Positions 3,728-43,781 of a DNA stretch of 57,112 bases are shown in pieces; position 1 is the first letter of the stretch, and each line of letters starts with the position of its first letter. The notes beneath the pieces are model-generated. The model did no database searches, had not been told where the DNA came from, and was given only the letters and a program-made list of their open reading frames with translations. The position numbers and the translations under genes are program-made. The stretch spans positions 1 through 57,112 of the forward strand of contig LXFE01000149.1 in the NCBI GenBank assembly GCA_001929475.1, read 5' to 3'. Origin of the DNA: Neolecta irregularis DAH-3. Lineage: Eukaryota.

Positions 3728-5344
3728 CTATTCTGCCTTGTTATTTCGGTTTGCAACTTTTACCGGATCCACCCATGAATTTCCACACAGCACATTCAGG
3801 CTTTTCCTTGTAAGCGAGTCAGAAAAGGCTGATGGCGACGACTGGAAGAGCGCCATTATAATCCCGAGCGAAGCCGCAAATAAATACACATCCACATGCT
3901 TCAAATTTATCTTCTTGTGCCTCTTTTCAACAATCTTCCATGACGATGCAAGAGACAGCCGTACTAAAGAGTCGACTCGTGATTTTCCGTGCTCTCGATC
4001 TAAAAACGCAAACAGTCCGCCAATGAACCCGGCTAAATGGAATCTCCAATTAGCAACAAACGCAATCAAACATACCTCCAACGAGGAAGAAAGTTATCAG
4101 GCAGAATCCGCTGAAACGCGCAAACAGAAGCCCAACATGTTCCAAAACCAAATGTTACAAACGCAGAGACCCCGGCAATTTTTTGCGCAGTCAGCATTAT
4201 GAAAGATAAAGGACTAAATTATTAGGTCCCTGAAACAAATGGAGTTTTACTCTTTCTTCACTCTTTCATAGCGTAACAGCCCTAAACAGGTGTAGAATAC
4301 AAACATAAACTTTGAAACAGGGACTAGTTGCCTCGCGCAAAATTCGAGTAAAGTTTTCGTGCACGATGGGTTGTCGGGGTGTAGAGAAGCACAAGAGAGA
4401 TATGTAATACTAGGGTGGGCCAAATTTAATATCGGAGAGATTTCCTCAAAAACCAGAGGTACAGTAGACGCCCCGGGCCGCAATACAGGAGACTTGAACT
4501 TTGGATAATTCTTTCTTGATATTTCGGCAATGTTTTTGATTATGGTATCGCCATCTGGCCATGCAAGATGTGCCGGATAATCAGCTGGTCGCTTCTTCAC
4601 ATAAGAGTTCGAAAACCCGAATATGAAACTCTTGAAGCTCTACAATTAGAATGGTGGATGGCGAAGATTATACATTAGGGAAACAGTCTCCGTCAAAAAA
4701 CATCGCATGAAGCAATTGGCTCGAAGCAAAAGGAGCCATCATCCACGAGCCAAACCACCAGGGCAGATTAGGTAAATAACCCTCGGCACCCATGAACTTG
4801 TAGAAAGATTCAACAGCTTTGGTGAAGAGGTATATCGCAATACTGACTCGTCGGTTACCAGGCGGGTGGATAGCAAGCGCTGTCCCAGAAAGGACTCCAG
4901 CGACAATAGGAGGAAAGTACTCGGTCGAGCAAAGAGACTGAAAGTATCTCAAGGATTTACAAGGTGAAGGGCGTCCTCGTCTCTGAACCAGTTTCTGCCG
5001 AAAGCGAATAAGAAACGCGAGTAGGATAGGGTGGGAAAGAAACACTCCGGCAAAACTCAGGCCACTCCGGATGGCATTCTTTTGCGCTTTACGCAATAAT
5101 TCCTTAATTCTTATGTTTTAGAATGAACTTTGAGAAAATTTTACCCTTGTTTACCAAGTGAAGCAGGAATAGCAACATCGATCGCCAAAGTTAACGCATA
5201 AGCAGCGGTAAAAGAGCGGCACGCCGAGCGAAACTTTGCTGCCGAAGGAGAATCGGAATCATGTGAATGTTTTGATAGACCACTTTTACAAATGGAGGCA
5301 TACTCCTTGGGAGAGAGAAGAAAAGTTACAAGACTGCGGGTCAT
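3728..5344 (-). CDS. TMEM135/PMP24-like multi-pass membrane protein (5 exons)
   Basis: Hydrophobic helices; RRVSIAIYLFTKA, PFASSQLLHAMFFDGDCFP, CASLHP..PSC resemble the TMEM135 family; four short GT-AG introns restore frame. Confidence 0.65.
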
Positions 5345-5703
5345 GGGGTGAGGGGACAAGTTGAGTGGGAAAATCCATGTGAAGTTGTACCTGTATTAGC
5401 TCCACCTCTTCACCCAAATTGCATGACATTAGGTAATTTGTAAAGAAAAGTTACTATTTTGTGGCTGCAAGACACACGTTTAAAATCCGAATTTCATTAA
5501 ATGGCCAATTTCATGAAATTCAGGCTAAGAAAGTGGTTGTAAAACACGCCCTAATAGTTTAATTTCCACCTTGCGAGTTGTGAGAATGGCACGCTTGAAT
5601 AACTCCATGTTTGTACTCCTGTTATAATAATTACTTATTAATCGCAAACTAAATCGCAGAATCATATAGCAGATACTCTTATAGAATACAAGCAAAGGCC
5701 AAG

Positions 5704-7446
5704 CTAGAAATGTCTAATATCAAACTCCTCGACGTGCGAATGTAGATATAATCGTCTCGATCTATGGGGTATGCCCAATGCTCTTGTATTCCTGACAAGT
5801 GTAAACCAGGGTTCAAGTGAAGATGGGATTACCGCAATGTCCTCATGCTCCAACCAACTTGAAATGGAAATGAGTAGGCACAGAGAAGAATGATTACTAT
5901 GAAAGCCAGCGATTTTGACTTTGCAGATTGCAGGCTGTAGAGAGTAACCATTAGAATGAGCACTACAGTTCAACATAGATATATGCATTACCATACAAGA
6001 AGCGATGGTCGAACGAGTGAAGTTAAATATCAAACCGAATAAGAATATTGATATGAGAGATTGACGGAAATATGAAAATCGCATGAGTGTCCGGTTTGAA
6101 TTGTCGGCGAGGGAAGCAACAGCGGAGGCAACTTCAGTTAGACGCTGGACAATGACAATTGACCGGCTATCTAGGTCTTCAGAGATGTTCTCTGGATGAG
6201 CAACGACTTGGAGACTATTATACCCGTAGACCTACAGTCAAGCTTTCAAACTCTGCCTTTGCGTTCGAGGCACGATTTAGATTATCGTTTAAATATGAAT
6301 GTAACTGTATAGACTGTGTTGTGAGGCCCTCTGTTTGGTTCAATAAGAGGGTCTAATTATAAAGGATCGTTTTTGTAGTTGGAGCTCTACCACGAATTCG
6401 GTCAGGGAAGTGATTTTGCCTATGACCGATGGTAAGAGAGTACTATCAACTGTCTCAATCTGGAAAAGCATCTGGGGGTGAGATGTGCGAGGGAAAGAAT
6501 TACACCTCATCAGCTGCTACACGCACTTTTGTAGAAATTTGAGAATTTGAGCGCGACAATTGTGCGGCTTGCTCATTCATTTGAAGCAAAGAGTCTCTCT
6601 GCTGTTCTATAATCGACAAGTTATCATTGAAGAGCTGTCATAAGGGTTGACAGAGTTCAAGGAGATGTACCTCGTGCAATTCCGAGCGGCTATGCTTGAC
6701 AATATTTACGGTGGTTTGCAGTTCTGCATCAAGACTGGATAGTGTAGTATCGAGATGGGAGATATGACGCATGACGATAGGATGGAGCCTATCAAGGTCG
6801 TTGAATATAAGACCGAGCTTGGATGTGATTTCAGTCAGAGTTCGTAGTGTGAGGAGGTCATGCGAATGGCTCTCGTCTCTATGTTTGCGGAGCTCGTGAA
6901 GGTGGGTGTCCAATATGGCTGAGAGCTCTAATTGGACGAGCGAGATGTTTTGATAGAGGGCAATAATGTTGCCTGTACTGTTGAGAGGGCCTCTGAAGGA
7001 GGAGTACGAGTTTCCAGGTCTTTTGAGGCAACAACACAGAAGTTTAGGGTTTCGCGGTAGTAACCAGAGAACGTTGTCCATGACTAGCGGTTGGTGGTGC
7101 GGCAGGCAAAAATATCAAGGACCTGAGGACGTGCATCGAGCTGGATAAGGCAGCTGTCGAGAAGCTCGGGCTTATAACATGCCGCCGGCACCGGCAGACC
7201 CGCCGCCTCCAATTCACACACTGCCCACGCAACCGCAAAAATAAGGCGATCTCGAGAGAAAGGTGGAGTGGGCAGGCGGCAGAGGAGGGCAAGATCAGCA
7301 GAGGCCGAAGCTGGAAAACACGGTGATTGGGCGGCGGCAAAGGTTGTCAAGGCAGAAAGACGGTCGAGCACAGTGTCAGAAGAAATATCGTTAAGTAAGG
7401 CAGCAGCAGTTGTCGAAAGGATTGCACAGACACATAATACCTGCAT
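5704..7446 (-). CDS. KAR5: Nuclear fusion (karyogamy) protein Kar5/Tht1/GEX1 family
   Basis: Signal peptide, Cys-rich domain (AVAWAVCELEAAG..P.AC...SCL..L..RPQSWTTFSGYY...FC), coiled-coil middle, C-terminal TM helices; ~6 short introns; 3' exon boundaries uncertain. Confidence 0.78.
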
Positions 7447-7529
7447 CTGAATGGGAGGCAGGTGGTGGTGGTGATGGTCGGTAGAGATGTCTCCAAGCTG
7501 TGGCCGTCCCACCCACTGAAATTGAAGGT

Positions 7530-7855
7530 CTTGGTAAATATTTAGTCCTTTCAATAGATCGTCAAATGACATTCATTCCCATCTTGCAGTTTGATACCAT
7601 CTTCTAGCTTCACCGCCCAAAAAAAAGAGCTGTGATTCCATTCTTCAGAAAAAGTAATCTTCCATTGTCTTTCTCCAAGTTCTATGCCATAGCATCTTTT
7701 TCACCCACATATTTTTCAGGCTTTTCAATCTTGAATGACATAACTGACTTGGATATTGGATCAACTTCTTGTTTCTTTTCTTCCTTTTTTGGGCCAGGGG
7801 ATCTAGATTTTGGTAACGGGGATTCTTCTTTCACAGATCTTATTCTAGGAGGCAT
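7530..7855 (-). pseudogene. Degenerate Ty3/gypsy-type retrotransposon gag fragment
   Basis: Translation across a frameshift and stops gives FKIEKPEKYVGEKDA / RTWRKTMEDYF* / LFFLGGEARRWYQT..* / SFDDLLKGL, matching the retrotransposon Gag capsid pattern. Confidence 0.6.
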
Positions 7856-7973
7856 AAACTGGCTTATCTCTGAAAAAAATGCAAGCCTGATTCTTAGAGA
7901 AACATCTCCTGGTCACCTATTTTCAGGTTTACTGCGAGAAAACTTTGTTTCATTTCGCAGCACCAGGTTGTTG

Positions 7974-9344
7974 TTAATGCAATCGTAAACTAAAGCCAGC
8001 TCCTCCAATCTCACCTTCACCAAAGAGACTTCCCCGATCCACAATGGGAGCACTCGGACTTTCATGCTTTCTCCTTTCCCCAGAAGATTTGGAAGGAAAA
8101 CTTGGCATCAATTCTGTTGCTTGCGGTCGTGGTTCTTCAGTGAAATAAGGATGCTGCATCGCCACGCGAGCTGTGATGCGATTCGAAGGGTTCAAGGAAA
8201 GTAGATCTGAAAGCAGGTTTACCCCTTGTCGAGTCAATAAAGGAAACCGAGCTCGCAAAATTGAGCCTCGTCTGTAAATTAATTGATATTCGCATCGAGG
8301 AAATGCTACGCGGCGAGATGCTTCGGAAAGTTTATTGCCTTTGCATTAGGAAGATCAGAAAACCCTGGCCACTCCTCATCAGATGGAACTCCTAGAAGCT
8401 CAAAGATCCGGCGTTAGGCCAATTGATAACGATCCAAACCTTTGAAATTTGATCCAATTCGCTTTTGCCCTGCAACAGAGGTTTACCTGTTAGCAACTCG
8501 GCAAAAATACAACCAATTGACCACATATCAATTGCAGTATCGTATTTTATCGCACCGAGAAGTAGCTCCGGAGCTCTGGAATATCAACAAAATAGATATG
8601 AGTTTACTTACCGATACCATAAAGTAACAACGAGCTGGGTTAAAGGCGGCAGCGGGTCGCCATACAACCGAGCAAGTCCAAAGTCTGCTATTTTTATCAT
8701 TCCTCGATTGTTCATGAGTAAATTTGAAGTTTTCAAGTCTCGATGAATAATCCAGTAATCATGAAGAAGAGCCGTAGCCGATAGCAATTGGAGCATCAGT
8801 GTTTTGACTTCCGATTGAAGGAATGGTTCCTTCATATCTTCCATGAGGGTTTTGAGATCATGCTCGATATAATCCATGACTATAAACACGCTCAATATTA
8901 CCTTCTTTTGTTAAAAAAAAGTGGGTAATACTGCGAAAGGCTTTCTCCCATGACGACTTCCCGTATATTTACGATATTCGGATGCCGAGCGACCATTAAT
9001 GTTTCTATCTCTCGTAGACTCGTAACTGGAAACCCATTCTTTTCATTGTCCAATTTGAGTTTCTTTAGAGCTACTATTTCGCCAGTTTCCATATCCCTAG
9101 CACGATAAACGATCCCATAGGAACCTTCCTCGATGTGGTTGAGCTTTTCGTATGTGTCTACGAGACGACAGGATTCCAGAGGTGCCCCGAAGAATTGAAT
9201 GGAACGATTTGATGGGATTGATGGTTGCTGTTCCTCGACAGCGGCCTTTGAGACTGAACTCTTGCGTTTCCTAGACTTTTTTGAAACTCGGGAAGAAGCT
9301 ACAGATGGTCCCTCAAGATTGTTATCATCCCATCTCGAAGTCAT
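7974..9344 (-). CDS. CDK11: CDK11/PITSLRE-like cyclin-dependent kinase (Ppk23/NpkA type)
   Basis: [50 protein letters not shown]; 4 introns, one apparently GT..GG at 8408-8439. Confidence 0.9.
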
Positions 9345-9412
9345 CAGGCCCGGCTTTACAACATAGGTTGAGGTCGAGTCCCGCAACGTTCCCTTCGCTT
9401 TTCCCACAATCA

Positions 9413-10829
9413 ATGTTTTTGAATTGTACATCACGAAGGCTGATTACGGGGTTCAAATGCACATGGAGACAGTATACCAGCAAGGGTAGACTACCGCTGG
9501 AGGATATGATAATCGAAGCGATCAAGACAACTGGTCCACTCTCACTTCCTTCTTATATGAGGCTATGCCTTACAAATCCAGACCATGGTTATTATGCAGG
9601 AGGGAAAGATCCTCTAGGCACTTCAGGTGATTTTATTACATCACCAGAGATATCACAAATGTTTGGTGAACTGATTGGAATCTGGTTCGTCACTCAGTGG
9701 ATGGCGCAAAAAAAGCCGTCGCATTATAATCTAATTGAACTTGGTCCTGGAAGGGGAACACTACTAGACGACGCTTTACGTGTACTTATCTCAGCAATAT
9801 TGCTGCTAAACTGTCCAAGGCAATACAAGCATTTCCCGCCTGTGCGCAAGCTTTGAAGCGTATCCATCTGATAGAATCAAGTTCTACTCTTCGTGAGTTG
9901 CAAGCAAGAAAGCTCTGTAAAGTAGGCTCGCTGCGTCTTGGCGATGACAACTTATGGAGAGGCTCAGGAAATCTCGGGTGTCCTGTGACATGGCACGAAG
10001 ACTTGAAGACACTCAAAAGGGGTAGACGAAAGGCCGACTGGACAAAAGCTAATAGATAGAAGAGAGTGATGTTCCATTTGTGATAGCCCACGAATTTTTC
10101 GACGCTCTACCAATCCACAAGTTTGAGGTATTAACTTTTGATCTTTGATCTAACCGGCAGCGGACTTGTGAAGGCTGGAGAGAGCTTTTAGTCGATTCTT
10201 GCTCAAAGACTTTGCATTCGATACCTGCAAGCCCTTCAACGTCTACTGGGATCTCAGCAAGTGCTTTCCAACTAGTTCGTGCCAAAGGACCTACTCCAAC
10301 GAGTATAGCTATTACAAATTCATCGCCCCGCTACCAATCATTGCCAATAGGTTCGCGATTCGAATGCTCGCCTGATACTTTTGCTATAACGCGAGATCTT
10401 TCTCAGAGAATCAAGGCTGGTGGAGCAGTTCTTATCGTTGATTATGGACCTGAAAAGACTATTCCAATTGATACCCTACGTGGGATTCGGAAGCACAAGA
10501 TTGTATCTCCCTTTGAAACGCCTGGAACAACGGATCTCTCTGCAGATGTTGATTTTCAAGGTATCAAAGAGGTGGCTTTAGATGAAAAATGTGATGTCTA
10601 TGGACCTATAGAACAGGGAGTATGGCTTCAGACTCTAGGTATAGGTGCACGGGCAGAACAATTGAAGGCGTCTCAAAGCACTGTACAAGGCTGTCATCGT
10701 ATAGAAATCGGTCAAAAGAGACTAGTTGAAAGTAACCATGGATCCATGGGAAAAGCATACAAATTCATGTCAATTCTTCGAAAAGATAGTCCGATACCGG
10801 TAGGCTTTGGGGGTGATATACAAGATTGA
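9413..10829 (+). CDS. NDUFAF7: Mitochondrial protein arginine methyltransferase NDUFAF7/MidA (DUF185)
   Basis: GDFITSPEISQMFGELIGIW, ELGPGRGTL, AHEFFDALP, VDYG, DLSADVDF; 3 introns. Confidence 0.92.
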
Positions 10830-10842
10830 AGTAGACACTGAT

Positions 10843-12040
10843 TTAGTATCGAAGTGTCCCCAAGGGATCCAAACGCGAAATAGACGTCATCTTTTCAGCT
10901 TGCTCGTCTTCAGTCATGGGGCGCATCAATAATTCAATGACTTTAATACGTTTCTCGACGTGTTGACGGTCTTTTGCCGTGCGTCGTCTTTTCAACACTG
11001 ATCGACCGTGCAGATTCGTGTAACGAGCAAATTTACCTTCTTCTGTCGGTAACGCGAGTATTATATCAGTTGATAAGGCCTCTGTATTTAAATTTGTTTC
11101 GTAATCTCGAACATGAACAAAAGTTGTAGACACCTAAGGATCAGCAACAACTAAAACTTGAGATTACATCTTGAGTATTTCCCTCTGCAATTTTACGTTT
11201 GAGATTTGTTGAACTACGTTCATCTGCAAGAAAATATGAAAGCCATTCATCACCTACAGCAGATTGTGTAGGCCTGAACAAGGCTGTAACAAAACGGGGA
11301 TTGTCGGGCGTTGGCTCTGGTAAATTGGAGTCTGGACATCCTTGAAATTTCATTAACATGTACGTATTGTCGAAAATCTCAACGTCTGGGAACACGTCTA
11401 TCAATTCAACGGCTGTTAGATGTGCTTTTCTTGGATTGGGATGAACAAAAGAGTTGCAGTCAAACTCTGCAAAGGATTGCTCTATGGCGTCAAGTTGAGC
11501 ATGCGGATCGCGAAGTTTCTCTTGTCGTTCTGCCGCAGCCTTGATCGCTCGTATATTTTGTTGCGATTCTATCGTTATAGGCGGTTTTATGGAGGCTCTA
11601 GCCTCTGATGAAATATATTCTGTTCTGCGCAAAAACGATACACCAGCAGGATTGCGTTGCACTGAAGAAATGTGATCTGAGTCTTTAAGCAGGGCTTGAT
11701 CTTTAGGATCGAGCTGGGAATTCTGAAGAGGGTATAGTGCTGACTCGTCGCCCTCGAATAAACCAGGAAGAGCAGCGAGGTTCAACGGCATTCCCAGCTC
11801 TGGATCGAGATCAATACTCGTGGGAACTCTTTTTACAAGATCAGAGATGTAAGTAGTGTCGGTGTATCTCGATAATGGCGTTGGAATGTCGATCAACTTG
11901 GGTGCAAAAGGCGGTGCGGGCAATTGGTTCTAGCCTTTCAGTGACAACACACCAACAGGAGCAACCTGAAAGCGAAATCGTGCTATATAATCACCTATGG
12001 AGGACGATTGTGCCGATGATGAAGATGTTGGAGCTGGCAT
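10843..12040 (-). CDS. PAF1: RNA polymerase II-associated factor Paf1
   Basis: DYIARFRFQ|NQLPAPPFAPKL, ELGMPLNL, LDPKDQALL, VSFLRRTEYIS; 2 introns. Confidence 0.9.
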
Positions 12041-12449
12041 TTCGGGGAGAGTCGAAGGAAAGCTTGTAAGCACGTGGACGAGGGTATTTCGAAATGGGTA
12101 CAGTTTTCTCTTTCACATACAGATATAGTAAATACTTCTAACATGTAAAAGGAATGTATAGAATATCTCAATCTGTCAGTTTTCCCAAAAATGAATTCAC
12201 AGAATTGGAATTCTTGAAAAGAAATTTCAAATTTCACATTTTTCAATTTCATGAAATTATTTCCATGGTGCTGCAAAACGCGCCCTTAAAAGGTTTATTC
12301 GCTAGCCTAAGTATTGTGTACTTGGTTGGCTAATGTATCTATCTCTGTAATCCTGCTTTTATACTCGGCTTTTAATGACCCCAATATTATCCTATGCCTC
12401 CTTGCCGTATTAGTAAGGATATACTCACTCCACCACATACTCTAATGTT

Positions 12450-13239
12450 ATGTCGATGTTCTTCCAGGCCCTAAGACTTGGCAAAAAAGACGAGGATGGG
12501 AATTACTTGTTCAAGAATATCTCCTTTGATCTAATTCGAGGTGATACTGTCTGCATTCGAGGACCAAGTGGTTGTGGGTAGTCGACCGTGTTCTTCGCAA
12601 CTAATTTTGTCACAGAAAATCAACATTATTGAAAGCCCTTGCTCAACTCCAAGGATTCAACGAAGGGAAAGCGTTTTTGAAAGGCAAGGCTCCTGAACAG
12701 CATAAATCAATATGTCATTGGAGATCAAAAGTGCTCTACGTTGCATCGTCAATTCAAGCTCCTGGTTCACCTCTCGATTTCTGGCACACAGCAAAGTCCT
12801 TTACGTCCAATAAAGATAAGCTTGGTCAGGAAACGAAGCAATTTCAAGACCCCGTACGTCTTTCTGCATTTTGGAAGTTGCCCGAACAGTGTTGGATATC
12901 CCCATGGGCGAATTTGAGCTCGGGTCAAGTTCAAGTAGATTACAACCTGCTGAATTAATGTCAGCTCATTGCGTAGAAAGCGCTTTTGGCGATTGCGATT
13001 TGTTTAGAACCATCCGTCTTGCTACTAGATGGTTTGTATTTATTCTGCTTATATGCTGACTTTCTGAACCCACCTCGGCTCTCGATTTAGAATCGACACT
13101 TTTGGTCGAAAAATCTCTCAAAGCAATGACCTGCGTTTGGGTTACCCATTCAGCGGAACAGGAAAGTCGGGTTGCATCAGTGAGGACTATCTGGCTAGAT
13201 GTGGATGAGAGTACTCATTCAAGAACATCATACACATGA
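12450..13239 (+). CDS. Stand-alone ABC ATPase (single NBD, FetA/YbbL/STAR1-like)
   Basis: Walker A GPSGCGKSTLL, WRSKVLYV, signature LSSGQVQK, Walker B/D-loop VLLLDEPTSALD, H-loop WVTHS; no TM domain; third intron 13032-13066 ends in TG. Confidence 0.82.
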
Positions 13240-13370
13240 AAGATTTTTCAATGGTCTCGTATGTTCATGTAGTTATACAAAGACATACAGGATTGGATTT
13301 CTACTCGAAGTAGCAATGCTTGCTTTTGGAATGGCTCATAATTTCCACAAAGCATTTCAAGTCCTTTTAT

Positions 13371-14786
13371 TCATCTAAGTATTTCCGCAAACACGCGATG
13401 CAAATTGATATACTGCTTATCATTCATATCTAGCTTGCCAAGAGCAAATTGACAAATTTTGACAAATTCCAATAGCCGAACAAATTCCTTCTCTCCGCAC
13501 GTCTTTGACAAACTTTGCAGGTGGCGCCAAGACTCGTCGAAAAGTTCCAGGGCACGAGGGAGAATATTTTTATCATGCGAGACTATTTTAGCCAAAGTGA
13601 AGTATGTTTGAACGTTTGGAGTAATGTTCTCCTGCTTGGCTCTCTCCCATATGGTAATTGCCACTTTAGACCCACTGTGACCTTTGTGACAAGCTTGAAG
13701 TGCCAGAAAGATGGTTTTAGCTGTTGGCTCAAGCCCCCTTTTGATGATCCCATCTAAAAGTGCTGCACTTTCCTCCGGTGAGCCCTCACGAATAATTATG
13801 CGAAGAAGGCGTTCGTAATTTGCAAGGTCGACATCGATACGAGCTTGAAGAGCTTCCCAATACTCCATTGCGAGTGGTTTTTGCCGGAGTAGATGACAAA
13901 TCTCGAGAATCAAAGAAAGTGTTTGATTGCCCGGCTCGATCGTGTTGGGTACTGTGAGAGCTGCTGTTGAAGATTTTGATTGGGGATGTATATGTGCAAG
14001 GCCAAATGCAACATCAACCAAATCCAAAGCAAACTTCCAATCATCGGGTCGGTTCCCAATGAGTAGTACTTTACCTAATGTACAAAGCAAGATCTCGTCG
14101 GCGCGTATGTATCCGCCAGACCACCGTTTCAGAACCGTTGCCCATAATGTGTGTGCCTCTCTGACTCGAGATTCCACATCAATCTCATCGGTATGCAACA
14201 ATGCGGTGAGATAGGTTGTATAAGTGATTATATTTGGTGATTGCGGACCCTCAGGAGGCATTTGGGAAAATATCGATATCACAGCTTGGATATTGTTTGC
14301 GTGTGAGCAAGCCTTTATGCAAGCATTTGCATGATGGACAACTGGCTGTATGCCAGACTTTGATAATTGTATTGAGCGAAAGAGCGCAAGTGCCTTCTCT
14401 GGCACAGAAGAGGAATTTGGTGAGTTGGAGAGACCGTCGAAAAGGATAGTATATGTTTGTGCATTCGGAGGATGAGCGCGTTTCTTCATCTTTACGGTCA
14501 GCAGAACTAACAGAAGCCGAATAACCTCATTGAAATACTTGAACGCTCTCCCCAACTGTTTTCTTTTCAGGGCATCACGGATCAACAGATTCCAGGAAAC
14601 AGTGCACGAAGTTGCCAGACTGGCTCTACGCACCAGTTCTAGTGCATCTTCAGGTTTGTTGCGTCCGAGTAAATTCTCAGTCTCGTATGCAAGAGTAAAA
14701 GACGTGTGCGGTACTTTGGCTTCTCTCTGTGGAATTTGGCGTACCTTGGTGGAGTGCAGGCGAAGAAATCGGCACAAGGGAAGCAT
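13371..14786 (-). CDS. Mitochondrial pentatricopeptide repeat (PPR) protein
   Basis: PPR motifs VSWNLLI..AFKYFNE|MKKR..PNAQTYTILFDGL, PNIITYTTYL, PNVQTY; presequence-like N-terminus; one in-frame 36-nt intron. Confidence 0.85.
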   Translation of the reverse strand: MLPLCRFLRLHSTKVRQIPQREAKVPHTSFTLAYETENLLGRNKPEDALELVRRASLATSCTVSWNLLIRDALKRKQLGRAFKYFNEVIRLLLVLLTVKMKKRAHPPNAQTYTILFDGLSNSPNSSSVPEKALALFRSIQLSKSGIQPVVHHANACIKACSHANNIQAVISIFSQMPPEGPQSPNIITYTTYLTALLHTDEIDVESRVREAHTLWATVLKRWSGGYIRADEILLCTLGKVLLIGNRPDDWKFALDLVDVAFGLAHIHPQSKSSTAALTVPNTIEPGNQTLSLILEICHLLRQKPLAMEYWEALQARIDVDLANYERLLRIIIREGSPEESAALLDGIIKRGLEPTAKTIFLALQACHKGHSGSKVAITIWERAKQENITPNVQTYFTLAKIVSHDKNILPRALELFDESWRHLQSLSKTCGEKEFVRLLEFVKICQFALGKLDMNDKQYINLHRVFAEILR

Positions 14787-14827
14787 AGAAGTATGGTGGT
14801 GAGCGAAGAATTAAAAATATTTATTGT

Positions 14828-16002
14828 TTACACCATCACCATGGATATCAACATGTCCATCGCTCTCTCAGGTCCCTGCAATCGCACCATTTTCCGGAAA
14901 ATTGAGGGAACTGCACGCAAAAGGTCACGGTGCTGTACTGTTCGTCCGCGCTGCCCTGCAATAATGTCAGTCTGAGAGCAAAAACATTGGACTTGCAGCC
15001 GGACGGTACTCGGAGACCAGCAGTAAGCACATTGCGAGCGTTTCCCGTAGTTGCATCGACGCAAATCTCCCAAGTTATAACGAGCTCTGTTACTCTGAAG
15101 ACATGAAGTTGGGTTTCGCCGATCCAAGTGGATAGCTCGTCGGACCTTTTAGAAACTTTGCTCGGTTTGCGTGACTCGCGGGATGAGATTATGAACTCGG
15201 CATTGTATTTATTAAAGATATTGTGGAACACCAAACTTCGTGTAGCGCATAAGCGACTGTAGGATGAGAGGCCGTATAATAAATTGCCAATGTTGCGCTC
15301 TCTTGTTAATCTCAAATTGTGAGGAAAAGAAAAATCGCTGAATTCATACCTGTTGAATAACCCACCTAGTTCTCTGGATAATGCATCTGAGGCATGTATG
15401 TCTAATGCCACAACGCGTTCTTTAACTACAGACATAGTAATTTGAAACTGCAGATGGCGTGAATGACAGAACCCGTAGATATCATAGCGTGTGCTAGTAG
15501 TTCCTGGTTCGACCCCAGATTCCACACGTATCGAGGAATTCACAAACTGACAGTGAGTGAGAGCATCCAAATTCGCTTCGATTATGGAAGAAAGGTCGGG
15601 AAGGGCGTTTGGAACAGAAAGTTGGGGAGCCTGGACAGCTATTTCTCGTGAATTATTCAAGAATTCTTCATTCGACTTGAGGAGTTCGTCGCTACGGATC
15701 AATCAACATTTGCATTTGACATCTGGGTCGTACACCACTGCGGATAATTCCAGATTTCTGGGGTCTGGAATAGATTTCGAGGCTTTTGTCAGGGTTTGTA
15801 GATCCAATTCGAGTTCAGCAATCTCTTGCAAGAGACAAATTTCCAGCTCAGATTGATTTGAGGGTGGTGCATGTTTAGCAGGAGGCAATTGACGAGTTTG
15901 TTTCCTGATTCTCGGTACTGGCGAAGATGGTTTTGTTTTTTGCAGAAGATGGGGCGAGAATCGAGCAAGTGAAGCTGTTGTGGGCGAGAGATACGAGGCC
16001 AT
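14828..16002 (-). CDS. Probable inner kinetochore subunit CENP-P/Ctf19/Fta2-like
   Basis: Coiled coil then RWD-like region ELVITWEICVD..G...L..RVP and C-terminal AVPSIFRKMVRLQGPERAMDMLI resembling the CENP-P C-terminus; 3 introns incl. GC-AG 14956-14996. Confidence 0.55.
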
Positions 16003-16104
16003 GATGGTGGTGAATGTATGTATAGTTCTTGTTTGAACAATTCTCACGAGATCGATCCCGCATCTCATTTCCCTCTCCACCATCTGCCCTATTAAAAAAT
16101 TATT

Positions 16105-17599
16105 ATGGCACTTAGACTCGCCACCCGCCCATTTGCCCGTCTGAATCTGCCATTTAGATCTGCCGCTATTCATTTTGCGCGTCCTGTCGTTGCTGCTGTT
16201 GCCCCTTTGAGTAAACCAATTGCTCGTCGCGGCATGAAAACCATGGACTTTGCCGGTCATAAAGAACCCATTTATGAGCGTCAAGACTGGCCCCGCGAAA
16301 AGTTCCAGGTGCGTAGATGTCTTCTATTATTTTATTATTATTTATTATTATTGGTTCACTTAGCCTGATTTGATAGGACTACTTCAAAAATGACATTCTT
16401 GCATTGATTGGCTACGGGTCCCAAGGACATGGCCAGGGTCTAAACGCCAGGGACAATGGTCTCAATATCATTGTTGGCGTACGCCGAGACGGTGCTTCTT
16501 GGAAACAAGCAGTCGAGGACGGCTGGGTATTCATAGCCTCAATTGAGTCCAGCTAAACCCAAGGTCCCAGACAAAAATCTCTTTGATGTAGAGACCGCTG
16601 TTAAAAGGGGCACAATCATCATGAACTTGCTATCGGATGCCGCCCAAAGTAAAACATGGCCTCAACTGAAACCGCTCATCACCAAGGGCAAAGTATGCCT
16701 CTCTCTTTCATCTCTAAATCCAGACTCTGTATTTCTCCCACGGATTCTCTGTCGTTTACAAGGATATCACAAAGGTTGTTCCGCCTTCTGATGTTGATGT
16801 CATCCTTGTGGCTCCCAAAGGCTCTGGCCGCACTGTCCGATCATTGTTCAAGGAAGGCCGAGGAATCAATTCTTCGATCGCCGTTTGGCAAGATGTAACA
16901 GGCAAGGCAGAGGAGAAAGCTGTTGCCCTTGCAGTAGCCGTCGGTTCGGGCTACATGTATAAAACCACCTTTGAACATGTAATTTCTTGATATGTTCCTG
17001 ACTGATTCTATGAGGAAGTTTACTCCGATCTCTATGGAGAGCGAGGGTGTTTAATGGGCGGTATCCAGGGCATGTTCTATGTATCTCCTAGCTTTTGTTC
17101 TTATCTGACTAAAGGCGCAATACGAAGTTTTGCGTGAGCGTGGTCACTCCCCCAGCGAAGTGTTTACACCGTTTCTACGTTTATGCTAATTATTCAGGCT
17201 TTTAACGAGACTGTCGAGGAAGCTACTCAATCACTTTATCCACTAATCGGTAAAAATGGAATGGATTGGTATCTGTTCAAAATTTCTCGATTCTGATTTT
17301 CAGGATGTTTGCTGCATGCTCAACTACAGCTCGCCGGGGAGCTCTCGACTGGTGGCCAAAGTTTTACAAGGCAACAAAGGCATGCACCCATTCTGTACCT
17401 TCACCTGATTACTTAGCCTGTCTTCAATGAACTCTATGATGCCGTAAAGGATGGTTCAGAGACCAAGCGGTCTCTTGAAAGCAATAGCAAGTCTAATTAT
17501 CGTGAAGAGCTTCAAAAGGAATTAGATGCTATGAACGATCAAGAAATCTGGCGTGTGGGTAAAGTCGTTCGATCTCTCCGCCCTGAAAACAAAATTTAA
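16105..17599 (+). CDS. ILV5: Ketol-acid reductoisomerase, mitochondrial (9 exons)
   Basis: IGYGSQGHGQGLNARDNG, MNLLSDAAQ, VAPKGSGRTVRSLF, EVYSDLYGERGCLMGG, ACSTTARRGALDW. Confidence 0.97.
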
Positions 17600-17815
17600 G
17601 ACTTCTACGAGATAGAATTAAATCACACTCTTTACATGCTTGTAGTGAGTTCATATCAACCATTTATGTATTTTTCAAAAAAGAGACTTCGTAAATATTT
17701 GGCGAGTTCAAAATTTATACAATCAACTACCCCACGACATGCCTCGCTCCTATATTTCACTTTCCTCGGTTACTGTGTCTCCAGGTTCTTCAATATAACC
17801 ATAGGGAGAACATAG

Positions 17816-20080
17816 ATGATTGAAATTCACTCCGATTCAGAATCAGATATTGAATGGGATGATGTCCAACTGACTGCGCCGGTACTCGAGCCTTCCAATT
17901 CCACAGGAGACAAACCAAGTGAAATTCTTGTACCACTTCAACCGAAGAAACTTTTGACCAAAACAACTGGGTAAACCTTTTTTGGATAGCTGCTAACTGT
18001 AATTTCAGAAGGCGAGGCATCTCAACTGCTGAAAAACAGCAAAGACTGACAATTCACAAATTGCACATCCTTTGTTTGTTGTCTCATCTCTTGATTCTGA
18101 ATCGTGCTTTGAATACAGAAGAACTACTGGCAAACTCTTTAGGGAACATTGGCTTACCAGATAGAAAAGGTCAAAAGACTTGATCCCGGCACGAATATAC
18201 GAAGATCTTCACCCTCAAAAAGATCTCATTCCTGCTCAAAGGTCCGTTTACTTCAATCGAGGACTCAGATCTTTGATCGATTTATGGAGAAATAAGTTTA
18301 AAACAACATGCGAGGGCATAAGAAAGCCTTTGTGGAGGTCCACATCGGCCGTATTCAACATTCAATATATTCATTAATGAGGTAGAATATCGATATATTC
18401 AAAAGCTCCCGAGAAACCTTGACGCAATCATTCAGCTCTCTTTCAGGCTCGAGAGATATAGGGGCGCAGCTCTTGACAATGCTTCTCAGAGCAGCTGGAG
18501 TTGAAACCCGTCTCGTCTGTTCGTTGCAAGTTTTGGATATTATTTCGACTGAAGAATCCGTTGTGCCACACTCTGTACCTTTCCAGAATCCTGAACAAGG
18601 GCTACGCAGCTCGGCGAATGATTTGACTAGTGATGACAACGAGCCGAAGCAGAGCACCCTTCAACCGCGCAGTCGAAGACAAAAGTTCAGAGTTCCCTTG
18701 AACAATGGTTCCAATATCGAAATAATTGTAGTTTTACTTGAAGAATACCTAAACTTACTCCAGAATACTTTTCATGATCCGCCATTTCCAGTGTATTGGT
18801 CGGAAGTTTTTGACGTGGCGACACAAAAGTGGCTCCCTGTTGATGCTTTTGCTACAAATACTATCGCAAAGCCAACAAAGCTTGAACCTCCACAGTCACT
18901 TCGGGAACTTCACATGTGCTATGTCATTGCATTAGACTATGGTAGTCTGGTTTGTTGTCCGAGCTCACTCGTCAGATGGCTTCGTAAAGGACGTCACTAG
19001 GCGGTATACCCGGTCGTTCAATAACAAGATAAGAAAATCGCGCATAACATCAATCGAGTCTGGACGAAATTGGTTTTGTTATGCCATGGCTTTCTTGAAG
19101 CGGCAGTGGATTGTGGTTTGGGAGAAAACTTTAATTTGCCAACGTTTAGGATTCAGATCAGATTGAAGATGCTGAATTGCTTAATTATGAGCTTTCTGAA
19201 AAAATGCCGACAAGTGTCCAAGACTTGAAAGACCATCCCATGTAATTCCCCACTGTCTGAAAACAGCGATTCACTTTCTCAGGTATGCTATGGAAAGGCA
19301 TTTGCGTCGCGATCAACTGATCGCCCCAGGAAGCCGACCTTGTGGGAGTATCACTGTAGGAAGAGGCCGCACTCCAGAAAACGTTTATCAACGCCAAAGC
19401 ATTCTGACAGTCAAATCTGAAGAACGCTGGTATCGAGAGGGACGACAGATCAAGGTATATTGGAAAATTACATCTGCTAAGTGAAGAACGGCGAGCTACC
19501 AGTCAAGTCCTTGCCTCGAAAATCGAGAGAGAGAGACAACAGAGCTCCTGAGACTGCTGTGCATATGTATACCTTTGATCAGACTGAACTATATGTGCCA
19601 CCACCGGTCGTAAATGGTCGGATACCCCGAAATACCTATGGGAATTGCGACTACTATATGCCTTGGATGATACCCTTGGGTGGTATTTTCGTTCAAGGTG
19701 CTTCCTGGTTAAACAGTGAAGCGAAAGCTGACTTGAAGATGCTGCGACTGCCAGAGCTGCGGCTAATCTCCTCATAGTGGACTATGCCGATGCTATTGTA
19801 AGTGCTCCTTGCTTGCTCTGTATTGACAGGCCAGACCGGGTTTCGCTTCCAAGGTCGTCTTGCTCGCCCGATTATTAGCGGAATCATTGTTGCGGCCGAA
19901 TACTTGGAGGCTGTACTTGCAGTGCAGCAAGGATTTGTTGACCTGGCATTGGAGGAACGTGTACAAGCACAGCGCAAAAAGACTCTGGAGCGGTGGAAAC
20001 TGTTCCTTACTGGTCTTGCCATATGCAAACGGCATGTTTTGTAAATTCGCCTGCTAACTGTTTGTAGCTTGGACTCATAG
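17816..20080 (+). CDS. RAD4: DNA damage recognition protein Rad4/XPC
   Basis: IHKLHILCLL, GSRDIGAQL..LLRAAG..TRLVCSLQ, YWSEVF, KDVTRRY, KDHP.YAMERHL, PPVVNGRIPRNTYGN, DYADA.TGF; start and final exon uncertain. Confidence 0.9.
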
Positions 20081-20144
20081 CGGCACTTTCCCGTTGTCAC
20101 GTGTCCCAAGTACTTCCTGCAAACGCCACCATTTTAATTCCGTT

Positions 20145-21114
20145 ATGTTGCTTACGCGCGCCTTTACCGGCCGCCGCTGCTTCTCACCGCCCAGTTTTCG
20201 CTTACTTACGGGCGCATACCTATGCCGCTCTCAGTCTTCTTTACCTGAGAAACCCGACCTCACCCATTTTGGCTTCCGTGAAGTCCCCGCCCCCCTCAAG
20301 CAGTCGTTGGGTATTTCACCCTGCTGATCTCAGTCTAATTTCCCTGCATATAGTCGCCGAGGTTTTCTCTTCTGTTGCTTCTTCCTATGATCTCATGAAC
20401 GATGCCATGTCTGCAGGGATCCACCGTTTGTGGAAAGACCGATTCGTCCAGAAACTTGATCCCGGCCGTGGTCGCATGAATATTCTCGATGTTGCTGGAG
20501 GGACGGGCGATATTGCCTTTCGGATGCTTGACCACGCTGCAAAAGTACACAACGATCACGATACGCTGGTTACTTGCGTAGATATTAACCCAGATATGCT
20601 CGCAGAAGGCAAGAAAAGATTATTGTCTACCTGCTACGCCAACAGTACTGCCATAGATTGGCTCTCTTCTGACCCTCTAGCTCCTAGGGTCTCTTTCAAA
20701 GTTCAGAATGCCGAGCTTCTCGACGAGATACCTTCAAATTCTGTCGACCTATATACCATCGCATTTGGGATCCGCAATTGCACCCACATCCCGCTTGTTC
20801 TACAACAAGCCCATCGCGTCCTCAAACCAGGCGGTATATTTGCATGTCTGGAATTCGGCAAAGTCTCGCCTCCCCCTCTGGCTTCACTCTATCGCCAATA
20901 TTCCTTCTCAGTGATCCCTTTAATCGGTCAACTGATCGCCGGTGATCGTGATTCATACCAATATCTGGTAGAGAGCATTGAAAAGTTCCCAAAACAGGAA
21001 GATTTCGCCAAACTGATTGAGGATGCTGGGTTTGAAATTTCTGGAAATGGATGGGAAGATTTGACCTTTGGCGTCGCGGCAATCCATACAGGCCTGAAGA
21101 AAAAATATAAATAA
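20145..21114 (+). CDS. COQ5: Ubiquinone biosynthesis C-methyltransferase Coq5
   Basis: THFGF, VFSSVASSYDLMNDAMSAGIHRLWKD, LDVAGGTGDIAF, YTIAFGIRN, YQYLVESIEKFP; 2 introns. Confidence 0.95.
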
Positions 21115-21117
21115 GGA

Positions 21118-22463
21118 TCACCAAGTCTTTTCATGTTCATCTATGGAAACTGCTTCTTTATCTGCGACCTTCTTGCGCTGTACCTCATTACTCACCTGGC
21201 TTTCAACTACTCCAGTTGGGAAACTCTCAATGTATTCTTTCACGATGCGGTCTCTTACTTCCATATCCATTGTCGCAAAACATAAATCACCCATAATGTC
21301 TTCAGGAAGGTTGGTCGACGTTATTTTAGATTTGTTCTTTGCCAAGAGTTTACGCAAGTCATTTTCTCTCTGCAGTTTTGGTAATTTCAAGCCTGTTGTC
21401 AGAAAATGAAGTAGAGAGATAGTACGTGATTGAAACTCGCGAAACTCCTTTTCCCTCTGCTTATCATTATCTCCAAAGTTTACAAATGCGGGATCCTTCT
21501 TGAATTTCCTTCTAAATTCATGCCAATATATTTTCGAATCTGCGTGGTCGGTTAAAAGCTTGTGATACTCTAGTATCGGCTAAGAATCGAGATCAGTACA
21601 GCCCACGTTAACAATATACATTTTGTTTGACTTTGGATGCGTTTTCAGCGTTGATTTGAATGCTTCTCTCTCGACACCATGCATCATAAACATACCTTCT
21701 GTTTTTCGTTGTCTCAATTACTAAATCGTAAGCTGCGTCCGTTCAAAGTAACTACGAATGTATCGCGGATCGTTGACAATTTTGGAGAGTTCTGCATCCC
21801 ATGTGCTAAACGGATCCACCGAACGATCCAAAAGCATCTCCTATCAGATTCAGCACAAGAATAAATATCATCCTGCCTTGAAGCTATCAACTCTCTCTTC
21901 CAGCGTCGGTTCTGGAGCACTTCCGTGTGAATAAGCATTGTTTTGTTCATCCTCTTGCGCAATTTCAGCCAATTGCCAAGCCAGGTCGTCCTCTGTGAAT
22001 TCTAATTGTTGTCCAATTCCTTCATCTTCATCTTCAGACGGAAGTCCTCGAGCTCGGCGATCCTGCTTTTTTTCCTCTACAAGAAGAGCATTTACAGCCG
22101 GCTGAATATCGTCCGGAATATTCCACAACGACTCGAGAGTCTTGAGATTATGCACAAACATCCTGCCCTTCTTGGTTGTAACGAGTATCCATGGTTCTGC
22201 GAAAGGAATTGGTTTCCTGGAGTCAGAAAAGATGCAGAATGGTTATTCTACTTGAATCGAGGCCTGTCTGGCTTCTCTGTCGGTTTTAGCTTGTTGGCAT
22301 GTAGGTGAGACTCGAGTGCAACGGGTTTTGGCGGTTCCGCTGTCGACTGCGCGAATTGTGGACGGATATAAGTAGACTTTGCGGATTCTTTGTGGTAATA
22401 ATATAAATGACCCGAGGGAGCAGTATGAACAGTCCAACCTTGTGGAAGTATGTTGGTAGACAT
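21118..22463 (-). CDS. WW/FF-domain splicing-associated factor (Dre4/Urn1/TCERG1-like)
   Basis: WW domain LPQGWTVHTAPSGHLYYYH..STYIRP; second WW-like segment; FF domain FK|EMLLD..VDPFSTWDAEL.KIVNDPRY; GC-AG intron 21841-21876. Confidence 0.82.
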
Positions 22464-22529
22464 GCGAGTAAAGTTAAAACCCAACATCAGCATTTACATC
22501 ACCACCGCATATAATCCACCAATTCTGCA

Positions 22530-23477
22530 ATGGCTAGACGGTACGACGCCCGTGTCAATTTATTCTCGCCTGAAGGTAATTGCCCAGCTGGTAGCGTCTT
22601 TTTAGGTATTTAGGCAGGATATATCAGATCGAATATGCCATGTATGCTCTTTCTTTCTCAGGTCTAATTGTCAACCAGGGAGGCTATTGCACATGCGGGA
22701 ACAGCACTGGGAATGCTTGCTACAGACGGGATAGTGCTTGCGGCTGAGAAGAAAGTCTTCAGTAAATTGCTTGAGAAAGATTCGTCATCAGAGAAAGTCG
22801 GAATTCTCAACGAGTATGTCACCTTTATTTGCCTTGCAATGACAACAAGCAATATGATTTGTGCGGTTGCAGGAATTACAGCAGATGCCAATATACTGAT
22901 GAACCATGCACGCAGTGATGCTCAACGATATCTCTACATGTACAACGAAGATATTCCCTGCGAACAACTCGTCCGAAAGCTGTGCGACTTGAAGCAAGGT
23001 TATACGCAATACGGAGGTATATTCTGTAAAAAGCATACATCGCTAAATACAGGCTTGCGGCCTTTTGGAGTGTCATTCATATTTGCCGGTTACGATCATC
23101 TGCATGGCTTTCAGTTATACCAGTCTAATCCCTCCGGTAATTACAGTGGGTGGAAAGCTACTACAATTGGGGCGAATAGTGCTAGCGCCCAAAGCTTGCT
23201 GAAACAAGACTACAAAGAAGATTGTACTCTTGCTGAAGCCTCAGGATTGGCATGCAAGGTCTTGAGTAAGACTATGGATAGTGAAACATTAAGCAGTGAA
23301 AGACGTACGTACTGCTTTCCTCTTCATAACATTTACAAGAAAGTCGAGTTTGCGACAATTACTCGCGATGCGACTGGACAAATAGTACAGCGGATTTGGA
23401 AGCCGGAAGAAATCGATTCACTATTGAAAGAACATGGAGTTGGTAAAACCAGTCCAGAGCAGATGGAAACGTCATAA
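22530..23477 (+). CDS. PRE9: 20S proteasome subunit alpha-3
   Basis: MARRYD...[51 protein letters not shown]; 5 introns. Confidence 0.93.
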
Positions 23478-23557
23478 ACTTGCCAGCTTATATAAAATAA
23501 TTCATTTCTATTTCATTAATATGCTGACTTTTCATTTACGGTCCTTTGTTCATTGCT

Positions 23558-25591
23558 TCAGTATAATTGTGGTCCGGCCGCGAGAATTTCTGCCGATGCT
23601 TGATCCTTATACTTCACAAAATTCTTCGTGAAGAGGGTGGCAAGTTTTCGAGCTTCATTGTTCAATTCGGTTTCACTACTCCATGACCGATACGGGTTCA
23701 GAATCTCTTCCGGAACACCGACACACGTTTTAGGGACGCTCAAATTGAAGATCTTGAAAGTCTCATACTCAACTTCTGCAAGTGAACCCGAATGAATGGC
23801 ATTCAGAATTGCACGCGTGTATTTGAGAGGACATCGCTGACCACCCAAGACTTGGCTGTGACCGATCCAGCCGGTGTTAACTAGCCAGGCATTGGCTTTG
23901 TGCGCGGTGATTTTCTAAGACTCAGTAACACTTCAGAATTATTTGTTACCTTTGCGAGCATATTTGCGTAACGGATAGGATGCAGGACCAGGAATGGTTG
24001 TCCAAAACAAGCCGAAAATGTTGCTTCAGGTTCGGTCACACCATCTACAGGTTAGAGATATACATGCCTTCTAGGGGCAACCTTCAGTTCCAGCCATTTT
24101 GGACGTGTATCCGCTGATAAAGTGATACATGACCTTGTTGTCAGAACGAGATTTGAATATGCAATACCTGCTCGTTGTTGAGTTTGGAGACAGGCGGTAA
24201 AACACCACTGGCGTCGCAAGTGAGAAGGATAATATTCCGAGGATGACCACTGGAGATGCAAGGGATTTTAGCATTAGGAATAAATCTATCTGTTAGGTTG
24301 CAATGAAAAGCACGCATACTCAATTGGATAAGCGCATCGAGTATTTTCTGTAAGTGTCTTGTCCTCGTAATCAACAACTCGATCGACTGGATTGAACACA
24401 ACATTTTCCAATACAGAGCCAAACCGAATAGCATTAAAAATATCAGGTTCCTAGAGTCAAAAATGATGTTTTTCTATTGAGATATCACCTTCTCGGCAGA
24501 GAGACCAATGCATTTCGCGTAACATCCACCCTCGACATTGAAGACGCCTGTGTCACTCCAACAATGCTCGTCGTCTCCGATCAAGGCTCGATGGGGATCT
24601 GCCGACAGAGTAGTCTTTCCGGTGCCGGAAAGGCCAAAGAATAACGTGACGTCACCGTCGACTCCTTCATTCGCAGAAGAATGGAGAGTAAGGATGTTAT
24701 GTTTGACAGGGAAGAGGTAGAGAACAACAGAAAAGATACCCTTCTTCATTTCGCCTATAAGATTAATACAGTTCCAGGGTGGGAAGGGCGAACCAGCATA
24801 TTCAGTGCCAAGGATAACCATTTCATGTTCTTTAAAGTTGATCGCGACAGAAGTGGTCGATGTCATGCCAGTAGTGAATCGATTAGCAGGGACTAAGATC
24901 AGAGATGCAGCAACTCCAAGAATTTTTACATGCACCGGCGTTGTAGATTGTAAAGTCTGGCTTGCCCCAGTGCTCCAGTTCCTCGGGCGTTGGTCGTATA
25001 AGCATATTTCGCATGAAGAGACAATGATAGGCACGGGCACAAACGACGCGGACTTTGATATGGTACCTTGGATCCCACCCTGCATATCCATCGAACACGT
25101 AAATTCGGGATCGGGTGTTTAGGTAATCAATAGCACGTTCACGATTAATGAGCCAAACATTCGGAGACATCTTTTGATTGACCACGCCCCACTACAGGTT
25201 TAATCTATGAGGGAAGATCTCGACCGTACCCAAATGTCTTTTGAAGATGTTTCTTCGTCGACTATCCGCTTGTCTTATGGAATGAGAAGACTTTATAGCA
25301 TACTCGCATACCTTTGGGAGAACGGCCAGTTTTTGCTCCTGAACTGGTATTCAGAGCACCCGTATTGGTAATTGCGCTTCCTTTTTCATAAACAAGAGCA
25401 TCCTCGTAGAGCTGAGCGACAGAAGGGTTGTATTGGATGTGCACGATGTCATAATTAATGTGTGCAGTTTCATAGAGTTCTTCTTCGATTTCTGTATGTT
25501 CATGCTCGGTAACAGCAGGAGTAATTCCGTGGGGATGTAGAGAAGTTCGATTGACCGAGCTTTTAGCTTGTTCAGCGGGAGACATTTTCAT
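23558..25591 (-). CDS. PCK1: Phosphoenolpyruvate carboxykinase (ATP)
   Basis: [75 protein letters not shown]; 9 introns. Confidence 0.97.
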
Positions 25592-32875: not shown

Positions 32876-33210
32876 GTCAATATAATGTGGACGCAGTTTG
32901 TCGAAAAGTGCTCACAGGCAACCAGTTTACGTACGCAAGTCCAATACAGACTCGGTGGATAATGAACTGAAAGATGCTAACAAAGAGGTACAAGCCGCTT
33001 CTTCCTCCAGACTACCAGGAAACCCAACAATTATCCTTCCCTGGATTAGAAAGAGCTGATCAGCTGGTTGTGGTTGCGTGTTGGTTGAGGCGGTGTCGGG
33101 TCGCTAGTCCCGTTTTTTCATGTACGAAAACATTATAAAATGTCTTGAACCAGAAAATACATCCACATCGCTATAAAACAAATATGAATACTAAGACATG
33201 AGCCTCATCG

Positions 33211-38696: not shown

Positions 38697-38777
38697 ACAG
38701 ATCGAGGTGAAGCAGGAGTAGTTGCACAACCACAAATATCAGCGATAAAAAAGTAATACACGTGCTGCTGCTACGCC

Positions 38778-40685: not shown

Positions 40686-40774
40686 GTAGTCTACAAGATT
40701 GTACATAAAGGGTTTCCTTTTATCTAAATTTAATAATTATCTCCATATTTCCATATATTAATGATGATAGTTTG

Positions 40775-43593: not shown

Positions 43594-43781
43594 AATTCAT
43601 GTCGCATACGGGATATATTAGTTGTATTTGTTGCAGGCATTGGTAGGAGGAGTTATTTCTTCACATGTCAATAGTTATCATGATAGCGATAATTGGTGTT
43701 ATTGTGCGACCATGCCGCTAACGCCCTGCTCACCATGATAACCCCCAAGAAAAACGTAATTCTCGCTTTCTTCCACTTGCC

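Follow-up and report, generated by a model that had tools for sequence, protein, structure and literature searches.

Can TG act as the ordinary acceptor of an intron in a conserved gene? The question is raised by a gene for an ABC ATPase in Neolecta irregularis DAH-3, carried on contig LXFE01000149.1, of which a stretch of 57,112 nucleotides was analysed (this whole stretch is referred to here as the window). The gene is divided by three tiny introns, the last of which ends in TG on the DNA. An earlier note on this DNA, made from the sequence alone, had described this last intron as a 35-nt sequence that splits the Walker B/D-loop region. It had gone on to suggest that it is the second of two independent non-AG acceptors among about 150 introns, and that the pair point to a rule rather than to noise.

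The other large open reading frames of the window carry a copper-fist domain, PPR repeats, TFIIS_M together with SPOC, and COQ5. The DNA is eukaryotic and, judged by its own content, very probably that of a fungus; similar entries in a protein atlas are fungal and come most often from Ascomycota, which is a lead only. An open reading frame on the minus strand, at approximately 36488–38738, has an EF-Tu GTP-binding domain, preceded in a crude gene model by a Q/N/Y-rich N-terminal stretch, and resembles a release factor of the eRF3/Sup35 type with a prion-like N domain. The first 2000 nucleotides are GC-rich (61%, against about 44% elsewhere), begin with a 40-nt poly-C run and contain a 30-nt tandem repeat at 1377–1524 (4.9 copies, 92% matches). 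The poly-C run lies at the very end of the window and looks like an assembly-end artefact.

The ABC ATPase gene and its third intron

The features of the locus are collected in Table 1. In translation, the predicted protein contains the motifs of an ABC ATPase in the expected order: Walker A (GPSGCGKST), the LSSGQ signature, LLLD followed by the catalytic E, the D-loop (SALD) and the H-loop (VTHS). Intron 1 divides Walker A (GPSGCG|KST), and intron 2 is found just 3' of the sequence coding for LSSGQ (12914–12928).

Table 1 Features of the ABC ATPase locus, in coordinates of the window
Feature	Position	Strand	Basis
40-nt GT..AG intron of minus-strand transcript	12401..12440	-	X2 joint 12399->12440, CT..AC, cut +1, record 11
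ABC ATPase gene (FetA/YbbL-like), 224 aa, soluble, four exons	12450..13239	+	gene model and translation; X2 transcript contig
Intron 1, 38 nt, GT..AG	12578..12615	+	X2 joint 12576->12615, cut +1
Intron 2, 42 nt, GT..AG	12935..12976	+	X2 joint 12934->12977
Intron 3, 35 nt, GT..TG acceptor	13032..13066	+	X2 joint 13029->13065; X1 DNA contig
Branch motif CTGAC, putative branch A 13059	13056..13060	+	sequence motif
Pyrimidine run TTTCTG, closing with the TG acceptor; exonic AA follows	13061..13066	+	sequence reading
Predicted 6-bp hairpin TCGATT/AATCGA, downstream AG in 3-nt loop	13082..13096	+	MFE and centroid folds
First AG downstream of the branch point, in frame	13089..13090	+	sequence

Profile searches were run on exon pieces and not on the joined spliced protein, and the scores should be read in that light. 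Exon 2 matches Pfam ABC_tran (PF00005) with an E value of 6.2e-4 and 20.8 bits, against a cut-off of 25 bits, and a 73-residue piece of one of the relatives described below reaches 33.7 bits with the same model. Judged by such pieces, the closest model is NCBIfam NF007601 (FetA/YbbL iron efflux), to which exons 1 and 2 and the last exon of a relative align collinearly (profile positions 11–38, 40–85 and 161–203), with separate scores of 17.1, 16.8 and 13.4 bits, all far under a cut-off of 292 bits that applies to the whole protein. The beginning of exon 4 falls at position 171 of the PstB profile TIGR00972, directly past Walker B (again far under the cut-off), and the LLLDEPTS piece of a relative stops at position 172 of the PstB profile, so that the join between exons 3 and 4 is collinear with ABC ATPases. 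A search for protein homologues with exon 2 produced 206 candidates among longer proteins, none of them at E<=0.001, and no public protein model for the gene was found.

Exon 3 terminates with ...CTA CTA GAT G at 13031, and exon 4 opens with AA CCC ACC TCG GCT CTC GAT. Between them, intron 3 begins with GTTTGT and ends with CTGACTTTCTG, and it contains no AG. Excision of these 35 nt produces an open frame of 224 residues that includes LLLD-E-PTSALD, and no other removal gives both; if the intron is retained, a stop codon follows about 20 codons on. The sequence is single-copy in the window, even when up to 3 mismatches are allowed.

The branch motif of intron 3 is followed by 6 nt, so that the branch A is at a distance of 7 nt from the final intron base, and its motif score of 4.29 is the joint highest among the 14 introns with RNA support. 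The AG listed in Table 1 is the sole AG in 13032–13100. It lies 31 nt from the branch A and 24 nt past the TG, and splicing there would keep the frame, drop the residues PTSALDLE and make an intron of 59 nt. The predicted hairpin could mask this AG, which we treat as a lead only: the fold of the surrounding 86 nt (13020–13105) is no better than those of shuffled sequences (z -0.40).

In size and signals the intron is an ordinary one for its neighbourhood. The 13 canonical introns nearby with RNA support are 32–42 nt long and have a YTNAY motif with the branch A 6–15 nt from the 3' end. Intron 3 is inside this range on all counts, with a length of 35 nt, an above-average donor score (1.18), CTGAC as its branch motif and a spacing of 7 nt. 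The same spacing is also the commonest in the 185 predictions of a crude, purpose-written gene finder (48 introns, followed by 37 with 8 nt and 27 with 6 nt), and the claim that the motif stands at canonical spacing therefore holds. The alternative acceptor at 13090 is beyond the RNA-supported range, in length (59 nt) as in spacing (31 nt).

Transcript and genomic evidence for the TG junction

Two sequencing runs, X1 and X2, were compared with positions 4001–24000 of the window. Neither is on record as RNA, and X2, which is labelled 'DNA?', consists of spliced transcript contigs. The comparison reported 57 joints, of which 15 were listed: 14 from X2 and a single oddity from X1 at a repeat. Among those from X2, eleven are plus-strand GT..AG joints, two, read as CT..AC, are minus-strand GT..AG joints, and the remaining one is the joint of interest here. 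It was reported as 13029->13065, skipping 35 nt with ends TG..TC and a 2-nt ambiguity (both=2), which is equivalent to removal of 13032–13066. Exon and intron both end in G, and the joint can therefore be placed as TG..TC, GG..CT or GT..TG, of which GT..TG alone begins like a normal intron.

The joint is carried by record 11 of X2 (746 nt, depth 507.7), together with both canonical introns of the gene. This contig covers 12268 to c. 13168 and passes four joints of the gene region unbroken; from its record coordinates it can be calculated to extend 53 nt before the joint in question and about 104 nt after it. The intron is exactly as the earlier note had described it in sequence, and its excision in the X2 contig restores LLLD-E-PTSALD. 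That note had also observed that no AG is nearby and that the next one is in frame and would delete PTSALDLE if used. Both observations are accurate, and the junction of the transcript contig is not at that AG; none of the 15 joints listed, of the 57 reported, uses it. The contig is unbranched through the junction, which points to the TG form as the principal isoform of the X2 run, with the proviso that contigs omit minor isoforms and give no quantities, and that the support comes from one contig in one run.

The DNA was compared in the same way. Record 5 of X1 (13,909 nt, depth 444) matches the window at 9887–23795 with 0 differences, and at such a depth low-coverage error is ruled out as the source of the TG. 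The claim of a non-AG acceptor is in this respect confirmed, as window and X1 agree on it, although X1 is possibly the window's own source and hence not independent. X2 is of a different genotype. It shows at least 15 fixed differences from the window among those listed in 20 kb, each with full depth in X2 and none in X1, and one of these, at 12804, is inside the ABC ATPase gene and changes Thr to Arg. We estimate that the X2 isolate is about 0.1% diverged from the window. Among the X2 differences, A/T transversions are the rarest class (14 of 173). The TG at 13065–66 is therefore a feature of the window and of the X1 DNA, whereas the intron sequence of the RNA run is invisible; a contig from spliced RNA does not include the intron, and the X2 genome might have AG at this position.

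Some further observations were made on these contigs. The minus-strand intron in Table 1 reads GTATGT...CTAAT...AAG and ends 10 nt upstream of the start codon of the ABC gene. The transcript to which it belongs, probably the 5' UTR of the neighbouring gene at approximately 10843–12040, is arranged head to head with the ABC gene and overlaps the start of that gene. A short region at about 12206–12290 resembles a short dispersed repeat: its depth in X1 reaches 3322, against approximately 444 on the flanks, records 6 and 7 of X1 match pieces of it, and several X2 contigs stop there with loose ends. Finally, 4001–5349 has a second version that is 12–14% different in both X1 and X2, at a depth similar to that of the main version (83 differences in 677 nt, and, over about 690 nt, 94 differences and 3 gaps). 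It would seem to be a diverged duplicate that is expressed, and not a second allele.

Relatives and the search for further non-AG acceptors

Metagenome contigs were scanned with the exon-2 peptide. Of 86 stretches that matched, 19 encode a relative of the protein (L001–L019), with 31–62% identity in the best segment. LLLDEPTS(x)ALDE is encoded by all 19, and the motif that is restored by removal of the 35 nt is consequently a conserved one.

The intron positions are a different matter. None of the 19 relatives has an intron at D|E, the position of intron 3. All of them have a small intron 10 nt downstream of this site, interrupting the Ser codon of EPTS in phase 2, a position at which the window has no intron. 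Intron 2 is also missing in the relatives, where the matches to exon 2 and exon 3 run contiguously. This leaves intron 1 as the only one of the three positions that is common to the window and its relatives, being occupied in the 18 whose contigs span it (interval i2). As only intron 1 is shared, intron turnover is high in this tiny-intron group. Of the sequences sampled, only the lineage of the window has the D|E intron, and the comparison lends its TG no support. The intron may have arisen by loss plus gain, or by a slide from the position seen in the relatives; the branch regions at the two positions share no more than the general consensus. An exact search of the metagenome contigs with a 24-nt pattern from exon 4 gave 0 matches.

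Intervals could be anchored for 73 of 76 combinations (19 loci and 4 positions), and all 73 admit a GT..AG or GC..AG intron that keeps the frame. For a few of them the printed model is a shorter alternative and not the best one, as for interval i4 (the Walker-B-proximal one) of L016 and L019. In three of the relatives, the first intron of the orthologous gene has GC..AG as its sole frame-keeping model (L001:1084–1123, L010:245–279 and L017:1568–1602).

The window itself was searched for more introns of this kind with a crude Viterbi gene finder, which in its relaxed mode recovered 12 of the 14 RNA-supported joints. The program overpredicts by about one third (78 introns in 4001–24000, against 57 joints) and fuses neighbouring genes. 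A model restricted to AG predicted 0 of the 3 introns of the ABC gene, and models that admit non-AG ends recovered all 3. When any 3' dinucleotide was permitted at a penalty of -5, 8 of 207 introns were non-AG, intron 3 being one of them.

Inspection of the candidates was not encouraging. At 14794–14839 on the minus strand there are two open reading frames in different frames, with X2 depths of about 24 and of 56–88, and we take these to be separate genes. At 34736–34773, also on the minus strand, the upstream gene simply stops at a stop codon, and at 43696–43729 on the plus strand the prediction bridges intergenic sequence. A plus-strand candidate at 17785–17831 was set aside on weaker grounds, in that a piece of X2 appears contiguous over 240 nt there. 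Those at 40671–40704, 39510–39546, 38726–38759 and 33096–33131 lie opposite a plus-strand gene or are intergenic, a judgement made on position only. Lowering the penalty to -2 gave 90 non-AG introns out of 252, mostly noise, for example 4574–4616, which is within a continuous open reading frame. A scan for the branch motif plus its flanks was swamped by in-frame false positives and missed intron 3, because exon 3 has only 18 codons.

The second non-AG acceptor that had been proposed thus has no convincing counterpart in the window. Given how crude the gene finder is, this is absence of evidence and not proof. The wider proposal, that such acceptors follow a rule, also fails to find backing: 13 of the 14 X2 joints listed are GT..AG, and all 73 anchored intervals in the relatives fit AG models.

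Possible explanations and their relation to known acceptors

On the basis of these observations, we consider that 13032–13066 is probably a genuine U2-type GT-TG intron of a functional ABC-ATPase gene. The difference in genotype between the DNA and the RNA allows another explanation, in which the acceptor of the species is AG, the sequenced isolate carries an A>T change at 13065, and the RNA comes from an isolate with AG. The sequenced strain would then be mis-spliced, by use of the AG at 13090 or by retention of the intron, or would still be spliced at TG. We regard this as possible, if on the unlikely side. It draws on the divergence of X2, which reaches the gene itself at 12804, and on a rough prior, by which acceptor-breaking SNPs between such isolates should be about as frequent as true GT-TG introns (0.024% in the fungal annotation of PMC11590231); moreover, human mutants in which AG is changed to TG leave the TG unused (PMC2374985). 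Against this, the explanation requires one specific base to have changed, by a type of substitution that is the rarest among the X2 differences; the frame and all the ABC motifs are otherwise intact, and the rest of the intron is optimal. The TG may be usable even so.

A second explanation gives a larger role to the downstream AG, and overlaps with the one we prefer in everything but this role. As in human TG-AG tandems, the AG at 13090 would define the intron and both junctions would be made, one of the isoforms being without the D-loop. The two sites are closer together than the 28-nt human limit (PMC2374985) and in frame with each other, and the stretch preceding the AG is pyrimidine-rich. 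The transcript evidence points the other way, as the site is unused among the 15 joints listed of 57 and the contig runs unbranched through the TG junction. The 59-nt intron and its 31-nt spacing would both be out of range, and the product would be deprived of a D-loop that is conserved in 19 of 19 relatives. We therefore think that there is little chance that this is the correct description. An error in the sequence or assembly at 13065, or a false joint created by reverse transcription or assembly at a 2-nt repeat, is very improbable. The ambiguity of the joint and the possible derivation of the window from X1 do leave an opening for it, which is narrowed by the depth of X1 and its agreement with the window over 13.9 kb, and by the depth of the X2 contig. 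Furthermore, the joint brings an invariant motif back into frame and has the same GT...CTGAC-N6 architecture as real introns, and the main form in the assembly would not be expected from template switching at a repeat of 2 nt.

It is worth adding that other kinds of intron were considered, and that these have hardly any likelihood at all. U12-type introns tolerate varied 3' ends and measure the distance from the branch point, and have the consensus RTATCCTT at the 5' splice site and TCCTTAAC at the branch site. Intron 3 instead reads GTTTGTAT at its GTTTGT start and GCTGAC at the branch, and an Rfam search of the window revealed no U12-type or other snRNA family; Rfam and ARAGORN, run over the whole window, found nothing. 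Unconventional splicing by IRE1 and tRNA ligase takes place at CNG|CNG loops, unlike the 5' junction ATG|GTT found here, and the predicted fold, being no better than shuffles, gives no reason to invoke it.

The reading of intron 3 as a U2-type GT-TG intron can be compared with what is known of such sites. Among the non-AG acceptors of U2 introns, TG has the best documentation and was validated in 36 human genes (2007, Genome Biol 8:R154, PMC2374985); GNAS and TSPYL2 are further examples (PMC4176328). Introns of the GT-TG kind are known from Drosophila as well. In the set of 36 human genes, TG never serves as the sole site and always accompanies an alternative AG at a distance of 28 nt at most, and mutations of AG to TG activate other AGs and not the TG (PMC2374985). 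Intron 3 has several properties in common with this set (PMC2374985): it begins with GT, has U2-type signals and would be ligated at the TG, with C as the pyrimidine at -3 and A as the purine at +1, and its AG partner, 24 nt downstream, falls within the 28-nt limit. It differs from it in two ways: the spacing from the branch point to the 3' end is 20–40 nt in the human introns (PMC2374985), and is 7 nt here in an intron of 35 nt; and here it is the TG form that makes up the assembled transcript, with the AG form unseen among the joints listed.

Fungi provide closer parallels. In S. cerevisiae that lacks Prp18, BG sites (CUG and UUG) are used, favoured by a U tract, an exonic A and proximity to the branch point, and their use is explained by pairing of the last base of the intron with its first G (Roy et al. 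2023, NAR 51:12428, PMC10711555). Intron 3 resembles these in having a fungal spliceosome, a site of the CUG/UUG type, a U tract, an exonic A and a nearby branch point. The yeast events are low-level errors unmasked by a mutant (PMC10711555), whereas here a conserved gene seems to use a UG as its normal site. In the curated annotation of Ganoderma lingzhi, there are 22 GT-TG introns (0.024%), 38 GT-GG and 19 GT-CG, against 89,855 GT-AG (PMC11590231, Table 1), so that G-terminal acceptors other than AG have a base rate of about 0.09%. Ganoderma lingzhi is thus another fungus with transcript-supported GT-TG introns, although its introns are longer, and the table of that work gives counts only, with no isoform shares for single introns and no mechanism. 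Intron 3 fits this known but rare GT-TG class, and a new splicing rule is not shown by intron 3 alone.

A short distance from the branch point has a further parallel in Giardia and Trichomonas. These have introns in which the branch point and 3' splice site are fused, with a branch A that stands very close to the 3' end at a nearly fixed distance, an extended conserved motif, and AG ends. The short distance in intron 3 is similar and suggests a ruler-like choice of the 3' site. The differences are the AG ends and the extended motif in those organisms, and the variation in spacing here, from 6 to 15 nt.

A GT-TG intron of this kind might be spliced as follows. Branching would occur at the A of CUGAC, and the second step would then dock a suitable site within a short window of about 6–15 nt, with a mode of 7. 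There is no AG inside this window, and the UG at +7 would retain the terminal G. In the catalytic spliceosome the 3' splice site makes contact by pairing with the first G of the intron, and the terminal G of intron 3 would make such a pair in a non-canonical form. The U-rich run before the UG and the exonic AA after it would provide the surroundings in which BG-type sites are favoured when yeast lacks Prp18. The sole AG, 31 nt from the branch A and so outside the usual window, and maybe held in the loop of a hairpin, would be outcompeted. It might still help to define the intron, or yield a minor isoform without the D-loop.

A stronger form of this mechanism can be envisaged, in which the second step selects the 3' end by a short branch-point ruler (about 6–9 nt) together with a terminal G, so that AG is preferred and not required and UG is the sole constitutive acceptor. 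We consider this doubtful. If it were true, there should be a genome-wide excess of GT-NG introns with a spacing of 6–9 nt, perhaps with altered Prp18, Slu7 or U2AF35, and UG would be the sole acceptor for an exon with an essential motif, which goes against the human data.

The simpler reading, of a single GT-TG intron, already has consequences. AG-only gene finders lose the ABC gene, and annotation of fungi with tiny introns should therefore permit rare GT-NG introns where there is RNA support. The intron is also compact, with its 35 nt and a branch A only 7 nt from the end, so that the effects of branch distance, terminal G, U tract and downstream AG could be tested with a small minigene. 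If the sequenced strain does splice at TG, this would be a natural, non-AG main acceptor of a U2-type intron, for the exon that completes the Walker B/D-loop of this ABC ATPase.
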